Below are positions 1-541 of a stretch of 541 nucleotides of DNA, piece after piece. A program made the translations under genes and the position numbers. Numbering within the stretch: position 1 is the stretch's first letter; the number at the start of each line of letters is the position of its first letter. The DNA comes from a phage: sequence record EF517038.1, one strand, 5' to 3'. The notes below the pieces were generated by a model, which ran no database searches, was not told the DNA's origin, and saw only the letters and a list, made by a program, of their open reading frames with translations.

Positions 1-292
1 TACTGTGGAGGCAGGACGAGATGAGATGGCTGTAGGCTCTCACGCTAAGGATTACAATCACAACTCTATCGGCGTCTGCCTTGTTGGTGGTATCGACGAT
101 AAAGGTAAGTTCGACGCTAACTTTACGCCAGCCCAAATGCAATCCCTTCGCTCACTGCTTGTCACACTGCTGGCTAAGTACGAAGGCGCTGTGCTTCGCG
201 CCCATCATGAGGTGGCGCCGAAGGCTTGCCCTTCGTTCGACCTTAAGCGTTGGTGGGAGAAGAACGAACTGATCACTTCTGACCGTGGATAA
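1..292 (+). CDS. 3.5: T7-type lysozyme / N-acetylmuramoyl-L-alanine amidase (Amidase_2/PGRP fold, also the T7 RNA polymerase inhibitor), C-terminal part; 5' end lies upstream of the window
   Basis: Reading frame starts at position 2 (act gtg gag gca... = T V E A G R D E M A V G S H A K D Y N H N S I G V C L V G G I D D K G K F D A N F T P A Q M Q S L R S L L V T L L A K Y E G A V L R A H H E V A P K A C P S F D L K R W W E K N E L I T S D R G), ending at TAA 290-292. The frame is open back to the window edge, so the Met at 5-7 in the ORF track is internal, not the true start. The translation matches the C-terminal ~96 residues of T7 gene 3.5 lysozyme as I recall it almost residue for residue, including the RAHHEVAPKACPSF segment that carries the zinc-ligand His and Cys and the catalytic Lys of the amidase. 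Confidence 0.95.
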   Translation, partial: TVEAGRDEMAVGSHAKDYNHNSIGVCLVGGIDDKGKFDANFTPAQMQSLRSLLVTLLAKYEGAVLRAHHEVAPKACPSFDLKRWWEKNELITSDRG

Positions 293-293
293 T

Positions 294-316
294 TAATTGA
301 ACTCACTAAAGGGAGA
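294..316 (+). promoter_or_regulatory. T7 RNA polymerase promoter, class II type (phi3.8); predicted +1 is G311
   Basis: TAATTGAACTCACTAAAGGGAGA at 294-316 aligns with the 23-nt T7 promoter consensus TAATACGACTCACTATAGGGAGA (-17 to +6). It matches at 19 of 23 positions, with mismatches at -13, -12, -11 and -2; the conserved CTCACT core and the GGGAGA initiation region are intact. It sits in the right place and orientation to drive the downstream gene, and the whole 294-323 stretch agrees with my memory of the T7 phi3.8 promoter. Confidence 0.9.
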
Positions 317-339
317 CCACAGCGATTTCCCTTTGTTCG
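298..339 (+). promoter_or_regulatory. Candidate RNA hairpin in read-through transcripts, possibly the RNase III processing site (R3.8) known in this T7 intergenic region
   Basis: Hand-folded: upper stem 308-316 (AAAGGGAGA) pairs with 326-334 (TTTCCCTTT), 9 bp including one G-U, with a 9-nt loop at 317-325. A lower stem 298-302 (TGAAC) pairs with 335-339 (GTTCG), 5 bp including one G-U, separated from the upper stem by a 5-nt bulge at 303-307. T7 is known to have an RNase III site between phi3.8 and gene 3.8. Folding energy was not computed. Confidence 0.4.
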
Positions 340-343
340 CATT

Positions 344-348
344 GGAGG
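344..348 (+). promoter_or_regulatory. Shine-Dalgarno ribosome-binding site for the downstream HNH endonuclease gene
   Basis: GGAGG at 344-348, followed by a 7-nt spacer (TCAAATA) and then ATG at 356-358. Core SD sequence at optimal spacing. Confidence 0.75.
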
Positions 349-355
349 TCAAATA

Positions 356-541
356 ATGCGCAAGTCTTATAAACAATTCTATAAGGCTCCGAGGAGGCAT
401 ATCCAAGTGTGGGAGGCAGCCAATGGGCCTATACCAAAAGGTTATTATATAGATCACATTGACGGCAATCCACTCAACGACGCCTTAGACAATCTCCGTC
501 TGACTCTCCCAAAAGAAAACTCATGGAACATGAAGACTCCA
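356..541 (+). CDS. 3.8: HNH endonuclease (HNH_3-type, T7 gp3.8-like), N-terminal 62 codons; 3' end lies beyond the window
   Basis: ATG at 356 preceded by the SD at 344-348; the frame is open to the window end (position 541 completes a codon). Translation: MRKSYKQFYKAPRRHIQVWEAANGPIPKGYYIDHIDGNPLNDALDNLRLTLPKENSWNMKTP. The segment Y-I-D-H-I-D-G-N-x2-N-D-x2-D-N-L-R-L-x-L-x2-E-N is the characteristic HNH_3 signature (catalytic His34, Asn38, Asn46, then E-N). Position immediately downstream of lysozyme and the phi3.8 promoter matches T7 gene 3.8. Absent from the ORF track only because there is no in-window stop. Confidence 0.9.
   Translation, partial: MRKSYKQFYKAPRRHIQVWEAANGPIPKGYYIDHIDGNPLNDALDNLRLTLPKENSWNMKTP

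Follow-up and report, generated by a model that had tools for sequence, protein, structure and literature searches.

On the evidence of its sequence, the stretch from position 356 to position 541 of the window (the window being the whole 541-nt stretch of DNA analysed here) is certainly the 5' half of the annotated gene 3.8 of phage T7. The best explanation of the whole, and one held with high confidence, is that it is T7 gene 3.8 in a variant carrying G:C>A:T mutations, and that its product, gp3.8, probably is, or was until recently, a homing endonuclease of the free-standing kind. Gene 3.8 is a textbook gene, already known and not overlooked, and the finding itself matters little, since an annotated gene of the best-studied podophage has been rediscovered. 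Comparison of the locus among relatives of T7 does, in addition, yield a concrete candidate target for the enzyme, the 5' end of gene 4A in the phages C5 and IME390, which lack gene 3.8.

Layout of the window and identity of gene 3.8

Nucleotide comparison with the T7 reference genome (NC_001604) placed the window at T7 10870-11410, with 98.9% identity, six mismatches and no gaps. The features recognised in it are as follows.

2-292, plus strand: gene 3.5 (lysozyme / N-acetylmuramoyl-L-alanine amidase), C-terminal 96 codons and stop codon (290-292); Pfam Amidase_2, E 7e-9, and NC_001604 annotation
294-316, plus strand: T7 RNA polymerase promoter phi3.8, TAATTGAACTCACTAAAGGGAGA, with +1 at G311; annotated 'T7 promoter phi3.8' at NC_001604 position 11180, which is window 311
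311-331, plus strand: predicted 5' leader stem-loop of the phi3.8 transcript; from folding of 311-360
343-344, plus strand: left edge of the gene 3.8 insertion, as seen against phages with an empty site; from alignment with C5 and IME390
344-348, plus strand: Shine-Dalgarno sequence GGAGG of gene 3.8, inside the inserted segment; read from the sequence
356-541, plus strand: gene 3.8, first 62 of 121 codons (HNH_3 domain), open to the end of the window; from the frame, Pfam and the T7 annotation
395-520, plus strand: HNH_3 core, residues 14-55, with a helix at 14-23 and the beta-beta-alpha metal finger at 31-57; from Pfam, AlphaFold2 and the I-HmuI profile alignment
452-457, plus strand: codons D33-H34 (GAT CAC), predicted metal ligand and general-base histidine; aligned with I-HmuI D74-H75
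491-493, plus strand: codon N46, central Asn of the HNH motif; invariant in 26 homologues and aligned with I-HmuI N87
503-505, plus strand: codon 50, ACT (Thr) in place of T7 GCT (Ala), i.e. A50T, resulting from G503A
518-520, plus strand: codon N55 (the N of ...KEN), predicted second metal ligand; at least 90% conserved and aligned with I-HmuI N96

The promoter phi3.8 drives genes 3.8 and 4, and alignment showed it to be kept in phages 13a, C5 and IME390, with or without gene 3.8. No intrinsic terminator was found in the window. A sigma-70-like promoter on the minus strand at 405-376, antisense within gene 3.8 (TGGATA-18-TAGAAT, 9/12), was rejected as being at chance level, one such match having been found where 0.4 were expected.

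The start region of gene 3.8 reads ...gcattGGAGGtcaaataATGcgc, in which GGAGG is separated by a 7-nt spacer (349-355) from the ATG at 356, and an alignment revealed the same arrangement in Tarrare and T7. From that ATG, frame +2 stays open to position 541 and translates to MRKSYKQFYKAPRRHIQVWEAANGPIPKGYYIDHIDGNPLNDALDNLRLTLPKENSWNMKTP, which contains the motif DHIDGN..N..NL..EN. Both the clean start and the motif-bearing frame that runs off the window had been described in an earlier reading of the sequence alone and can be read directly from the letters. That reading also remarked that the frame was missing from a program-made list of open reading frames; this is so because the list leaves out frames that run off the stretch, and it is no sign of anything unusual.

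The ATG at 356 corresponds to T7 11225, the annotated start of gene 3.8 in NC_001604, and 61 of the 62 visible residues are identical to those of the T7 protein NP_041974 ('HNH endonuclease'), the difference being A50T. A search with the Pfam HNH_3 profile (PF13392), as the sequence-only reading had proposed, was significant (E 2.1e-15): the 62-residue fragment scored 56.5 bits against a curated gathering score of 24.8, with residues 14-55 falling on positions 3-44 of the 46 in the profile. The fragment also matched PHROG 4578, 'HNH endonuclease', with an E value of 2.7e-31. The gene lies after phi3.8 and before gene 4A, which it overlaps (the overlap is beyond the window and was seen in the T7 reference only), and on this position together with the near-identical sequence it is the orthologue of T7 gene 3.8. 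The naming of the product as T7 gp3.8, an HNH_3 protein, therefore stands. An early stop codon just past the window, which had been raised as a possible sign of a decayed remnant, is absent from T7 itself, where the frame runs to 121 aa.

Architecture of gp3.8 and the state of this copy

T7 gp3.8, at 121 aa, consists of an N-terminal HNH motif of the I-HmuI type, which is inside the window, and a C-terminal DNA-binding domain with an AP2 fold, which is outside it. A profile of 26 homologues matched residues 31-103 of I-HmuI (PDB 1U3E) with an E value of 1e-8, and in this profile alignment D33, H34, N46 and N55 of gp3.8 fall on D74, H75, N87 and N96 of I-HmuI, the metal ligands, general base and structural Asn of that enzyme. 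The protein thus has the residues of a beta-beta-alpha-metal nuclease of this type, namely an Asp before the general-base His, a central Asn and a distal metal-binding Asn. Across the alignment of the 26 homologues no variation is seen at D33, H34 or N46 and conservation of N55 reaches at least 90%; the window has intact codons for all four of these residues, which are predicted to be catalytic. A protein with 99% identity, as modelled by AlphaFold2 (pLDDT 88), has a helix at 14-23, a beta-beta-alpha unit at 31-57 and a three-stranded sheet on a long helix at 72-117.

The gp3.8 profile also matched the AP2 domain of WRI1 (E 5.7e-4), and homologues at 37-45% identity carry both PF00847 and PF13392 in Pfam. 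The Pfam AP2 family (PF00847) gave no match to T7 gp3.8 itself even at E <= 1; the fold match and the presence of PF00847 in distant homologues nevertheless indicate that the C-terminal domain is AP2-like, though not a Pfam-level member by sequence. A nuclease domain is predicted, then, to be joined to a domain that reads DNA sequence, as is expected of a homing endonuclease, and judged from its sequence the architecture is that of a minimal HNH-AP2 protein, a known homing endonuclease type.

The match to I-HmuI was reached by profile search and not with a single sequence; a single-sequence search of solved structures with T7 gp3.8 returned spurious matches only (a designed Kelch-repeat protein and Fab chains). 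The homologue set was likewise obtained with the full T7 protein as query, a search with the 62-aa fragment having returned only four proteins, truncated or apparently frameshifted. Several database proteins from metagenome and SRA assemblies (P0001, P0002 and P0004) join N-terminal parts of gp3.8 to unrelated C-terminal tails, e.g. MRKSYKQFYKAPRRHIQVWEAANGPDPQDGCGRHDRVVDSGSK, as if gene 3.8 had been frameshifted, truncated or engineered in them.

All six differences between the window and T7, at positions 51, 58, 272, 325, 454 and 503, are G>A or C>T changes and affect 1.1% of sites. In gene 3.5 two of them alter amino acids (G72D, GGT>GAT, at 51; V146I, GTC>ATC, at 272) and C58T is synonymous; in gene 3.8 C454T is synonymous, at D33 of gp3.8, and G503A produces A50T. 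The T7 isolates K, K115, P and P82 (AY264775-8) have 7-8 changes of the same kind in the same 541 nt, at other positions, with only C58T in common, and that with K and K115, so that none of the four is the source of the window. Exact patterns across the variant sites had no match in the viral, metagenome and genome contigs searched. MNNG mutagenesis of T7 populations has been described in work that is cited in a passage of PMC8923235. From this pattern of changes the window looks like part of a separate, mutagen-treated or similar T7 lineage.

It is unlikely that gene 3.8 in this isolate is a decaying and non-functional copy, a dispensable gene left unprotected from mutagen-type G:C>A:T changes. 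The spectrum and density of the changes, the same as in K, K115, P and P82, would fit decay, as would the dispensability of the gene (see below). A50T lies in a column that is invariant in the 26 gp3.8-type homologues, but I-HmuI has Val at the aligned position, so that Thr is plausibly tolerated, and the Pfam HNH_3 score is not lowered by the change (56.5 bits, against 56.0 for T7); a loss of function through A50T is therefore possible but not indicated. In the leader, G325A removes the C317-G325 pair of the phi3.8 hairpin (GGGAGACC...GGTTTCCC), which weakens the predicted fold of 311-360 from -19.0 kcal/mol (z -3.5) in T7 to -12.3 kcal/mol (z -1.1) in the window and could, on this model, lower the stability of the mRNA of genes 3.8 and 4. 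The unseen 59 codons hold 10 sites at which a G:C>A:T change gives a stop, and about 2.3% of the G/C sites of the window are changed; if gene 3.8 were unselected, roughly 20% of such copies would carry a nonsense change in that part. Against decay, the 62 visible codons contain no stop or frameshift and retain every predicted catalytic residue.

The slot before gene 4A

The order lysozyme gene, phi3.8, gene 4 is colinear in the Teseptimavirus relatives of T7, and what varies is the slot between the promoter and gene 4A. A gp3.8 of the 121-aa type fills it in T7, Tarrare, YpP-Y, fPS-53 (Yersinia, Helsettvirus), and Adeo and IME335 (Klebsiella, Przondovirus), and in all six of these phages gene 3.8 overlaps the primase/helicase gene by 26 nt. 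In phage 13a the slot is occupied by an unrelated-looking ORF of 160 aa with its own HNH motif (IDHINCVKTDNRVENL...SEN; L002 1561-2043). This ORF ends in the same coding sequence, ...LHGQYARF*, overlapping the start of gene 4A (MDNMLDSDS), so that two different HNH genes share one docking arrangement. In C5 and IME390 the slot is empty, with ~67 nt from the lysozyme stop codon to the ATG of gene 4. The comparison of presence and absence that had been suggested for this gene thus found it to vary at one fixed site among close, colinear relatives of T7, a property of homing endonuclease genes; by these alignments gene 3.8 behaves as an insertion.

The left boundary of the insertion is sharp in the alignment. 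T7, C5 and IME390 are colinear through ...CCCTTTGTTCGCATT, which ends at window 343, and then diverge, T7 continuing with GGAGGTCAAATAATG... and the empty sites with GTTGATTAAGGAATAACCATATG, the start of gene 4. As divergence begins at base 344, a ribosome-binding site comes with the gene 3.8 insert. On the right, the closing codons of gene 3.8 (...RELHGQFARFR*) contain the gene 4A ribosome-binding site, ATG and opening codons; gene 4A begins MDNSHDSDS... in carriers and MELEQDS... in empty sites.

In a larger phage collection a gp3.8 homologue is encoded in 210 records, 200 of them with a full-length protein, and a contiguous empty junction was found in 52 records. Among the 40 listed of the 210, taken from all down the ranking, the homologue adjoins the primase/helicase gene in every region that has informative annotation, with two exceptions, both of them weak matches (about 41% identity) in larger, unrelated phages. 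An apparent variety of gene 3.8 positions among Klebsiella phages was discarded, as only the start coordinates or orientation of the records differ and the gene is in the same slot before the primase/helicase gene.

Other genes near this locus also vary. Gene 2.8, an HNH gene between genes 2.5 and 3 in T7 (L001 488-907), is absent from 13a, C5 and IME390, while in Adeo and YpP-Y (L007 936-1373; L009 615-1073) the space between gene 3 and the lysozyme gene is taken up by a different HNH gene. In Adeo and IME335 an annotated hypothetical ORF of 39 aa (L007/L008 1885-2004) is found between the lysozyme gene and the gp3.8 homologue, overlapping the start of the latter by 4 nt; T7 has no equivalent.

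The segment that adjoins the insertion on its right is unusual. T7 is 85-100% identical to C5 and IME390 in the lysozyme gene and in gene 4 beyond nt ~180, and in the first three 60-nt windows of gene 4A identity is 67-68%, 70-72% and 42%. This trough, which is the first ~180 nt of gene 4A and lies outside the window (L001 2196-2375 compared with L003/L004), has no counterpart when carriers are compared with each other (100, 93 and 100% over the same three 60-nt windows for T7 and YpP-Y; 88, 85 and 65% for T7 and Tarrare, against a background of about 80%) or when the two empty sites are compared (93, 90 and 87% for C5 and IME390). Distant carriers resemble T7 most closely at the beginning of gene 4A, over 60-120 nt: fPS-53 is 80 and 70% identical there and Adeo 82 and 75%, where the background in the remainder of gene 4 is roughly 60-65% for the former and 65-70% for the latter.

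As the trough is confined to comparisons of a carrier with an empty site, gene 3.8 is linked to a particular allele of gene 4A, in the part that codes for the zinc finger of the primase. A linked, divergent flank of this sort, arising by co-conversion or as an immunity allele, is a further property expected of homing endonuclease genes. We infer from the alignments that the linked allele may be the footprint expected of cutting nearby in non-carriers followed by copy repair, or of an immunity allele, and the first ~180 nt of gene 4A become a candidate target or immunity region for gp3.8. Recent horizontal transfer, looked for as a gene 3.8 more similar between phages than its flanks, was not found, there being at most a slight excess in Adeo. 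Between phages the identity of gene 3.8 roughly tracks that of the flanks, which gives no signal of recent transfer between genera.

Two complete T7 genome records, T7_90S (L014) and T7_compile (L015), are without most of gene 3.8. What they retain is its last ~20-110 nt, where the essential gene 4A has its ribosome-binding site and its start, and T7_90S has an in-frame fusion of gene 3.8 codons 1-10 to gene 4A. A preprint reports that a T7 mutant deleted for 2.8, 7.7 and 3.8 gave plaque numbers comparable to those of the wild type (10.1101/2025.09.07.674715). Gene 3.8 is dispensable. It is scarcely credible, given this, that gp3.8 is a DNA-packaging accessory, although some cos-type siphophages use a terminase-associated HNH protein in packaging. 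The suggestion has in its favour only the small size of this phage HNH protein, about 120 aa. Its gene lies between the lysozyme and primase/helicase genes, in the DNA-metabolism region and not beside the terminase or portal genes; it is missing from close relatives and from the complete genome records of laboratory T7 mutants; and its AP2 DNA-binding domain is typical of homing-type HNH proteins. Dispensability and position effectively refute the assignment of gp3.8 to the terminase-associated HNH proteins.

The one functional result available comes from the same preprint (10.1101/2025.09.07.674715), which deals with GAPS4, a break-sensing defence. Plasmid-expressed gp3.8 with the catalytic-dead change H34A strongly reduced GAPS4 protection against lambda, so that the effect is reported as nuclease-independent, and wild-type T7 outcompeted the triple HNH deletion only when GAPS4 was active; the experiments used the triple mutant and overexpression from a plasmid, and not gp3.8 by itself in the amounts that the phage makes. 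These observations would suit a different account, in which gp3.8 is a domesticated and essentially non-mobile DNA-binding protein, kept for blunting host immunity (e.g. by hiding ends or breaks in DNA from the GAPS4 sensor), and in which the nuclease motif is a vestige or has a secondary part. The tracking of flank identity by gene 3.8 across genera, which resembles vertical descent, and its occupation of the same slot in three genera are also in keeping with domestication.

That account is nevertheless considered rather improbable. The near-complete conservation of D33, H34, N46 and N55 argues for selection on catalysis, and empty sites in close relatives, together with a different HNH gene in 13a, represent the turnover typical of mobile nuclease genes. 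The linked, divergent 5' allele of gene 4A is what a cut-and-copy element leaves behind, the genetic backgrounds used in the preprint do not single out gp3.8, and a role against GAPS4 is in any case compatible with homing.

Proposed mechanism and comparison with known systems

As inferred from these comparisons, gp3.8 most likely acts, or until recently acted, as a homing endonuclease of the free-standing HNH-AP2 kind, and it may be an I-HmuI-like nickase. Its AP2 domain would recognise a specific site in relatives without gene 3.8. This target most likely lies at or close to the 5' end of gene 4A, where the zinc finger is encoded, and the HNH motif, helped by a divalent metal, would make a nick or a cut in it. 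If a carrier has infected the same cell, repair by recombination with the carrier genome would then transfer gene 3.8 and, with it, the linked 5' segment of gene 4A, a segment that would also protect the carrier from being cut. Attenuation of GAPS4, as reported in the preprint (10.1101/2025.09.07.674715), may provide a second benefit that is independent of catalysis.

Several observations temper this proposal. Gene 3.8 tracks its flanks in identity, so the element could be an old and now immobile resident, and the anti-GAPS4 result is independent of the catalytic histidine. The lack of a Pfam AP2 match to T7 gp3.8 also counts against it, as do, for this variant, A50T in its invariant column and the possible nonsense change among the 59 codons beyond the window. 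In the literature searched, no cleavage site, target, nicking or cleavage activity, or homing event of gp3.8 was found, and the remark of the sequence-only reading that the biochemical role of gp3.8 is poorly defined was a fair one. It is possible, and is put forward tentatively as falling somewhat short of even chances, that gp3.8 is a still-active homing nickase or endonuclease targeting the first ~180 nt of gene 4A in non-carriers, that gene 3.8 and the 5' end of gene 4A form one competitor-excluding cassette, and that the protein acts in addition as a catalysis-independent shield against GAPS4. If so, gp3.8 would be a selfish element with a measurable benefit to the phage. An active gp3.8 would make T7 a very tractable system for studying the spread of free-standing HNH genes and also, in view of the anti-GAPS4 report of 2025, how such genes pay their way.

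Among known systems the closest is T7 gp3.8 itself (NP_041974.1), with which this copy shares the locus, the start codon, the promoter and all but one of the visible residues, within 541 nt that are 98.9% identical; it differs in A50T, in the synonymous change at D33 and in G325A in the leader. I-HmuI, from Bacillus phage SPO1, has the same HNH_3-type beta-beta-alpha-metal motif, with the D/H/N/N residues aligned. It is a monomeric, strand-specific nicking enzyme, and by analogy nicking rather than double-strand cutting would be a reasonable expectation for gp3.8. I-HmuI is intron-encoded whereas gp3.8 is free-standing, and gp3.8 is without the N-terminal sheet domain of I-HmuI and has an AP2-fold domain in place of its C-terminal helical DNA-binding modules.

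The Seg and Mob enzymes of T4 and F-CphI are free-standing phage homing endonucleases whose genes lie beside essential genes of DNA metabolism. Like gene 3.8, these genes are found between conserved essential genes, are present in some phages and absent from others, and have unusually divergent sequence adjoining them. For Seg, Mob and F-CphI the cleavage sites have been mapped and marker exclusion or homing has been demonstrated, whereas for gp3.8 homing is a proposal. The setting of gene 3.8 is paralleled in what the title of PMC10448857 announces, 'Nuclease genes occupy boundaries of genetic exchange between bacteriophages'. A parallel of another kind is bas24_0090, an HNH homing endonuclease of phage BASEL_24 that attenuates GAPS4, gp3.8 having been reported with the same nuclease-independent effect (10.1101/2025.09.07.674715).

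In domain content gp3.8 resembles the HNH-AP2 homing endonucleases of phages, cyanobacteria and ciliates, in which an HNH nuclease is likewise fused to an AP2 domain. Magnani et al. are said to have proposed in 2004 that such enzymes were the ancestors of the plant AP2/ERF domains. The pairing of HNH and AP2 domains is also stated in a recent report (10.64898/2026.02.23.707548). Compared with its relatives of 150-180 aa, gp3.8 is a minimal HNH-AP2 protein (121 aa) that does without their N-terminal extension and has an AP2 domain too diverged for the Pfam model.
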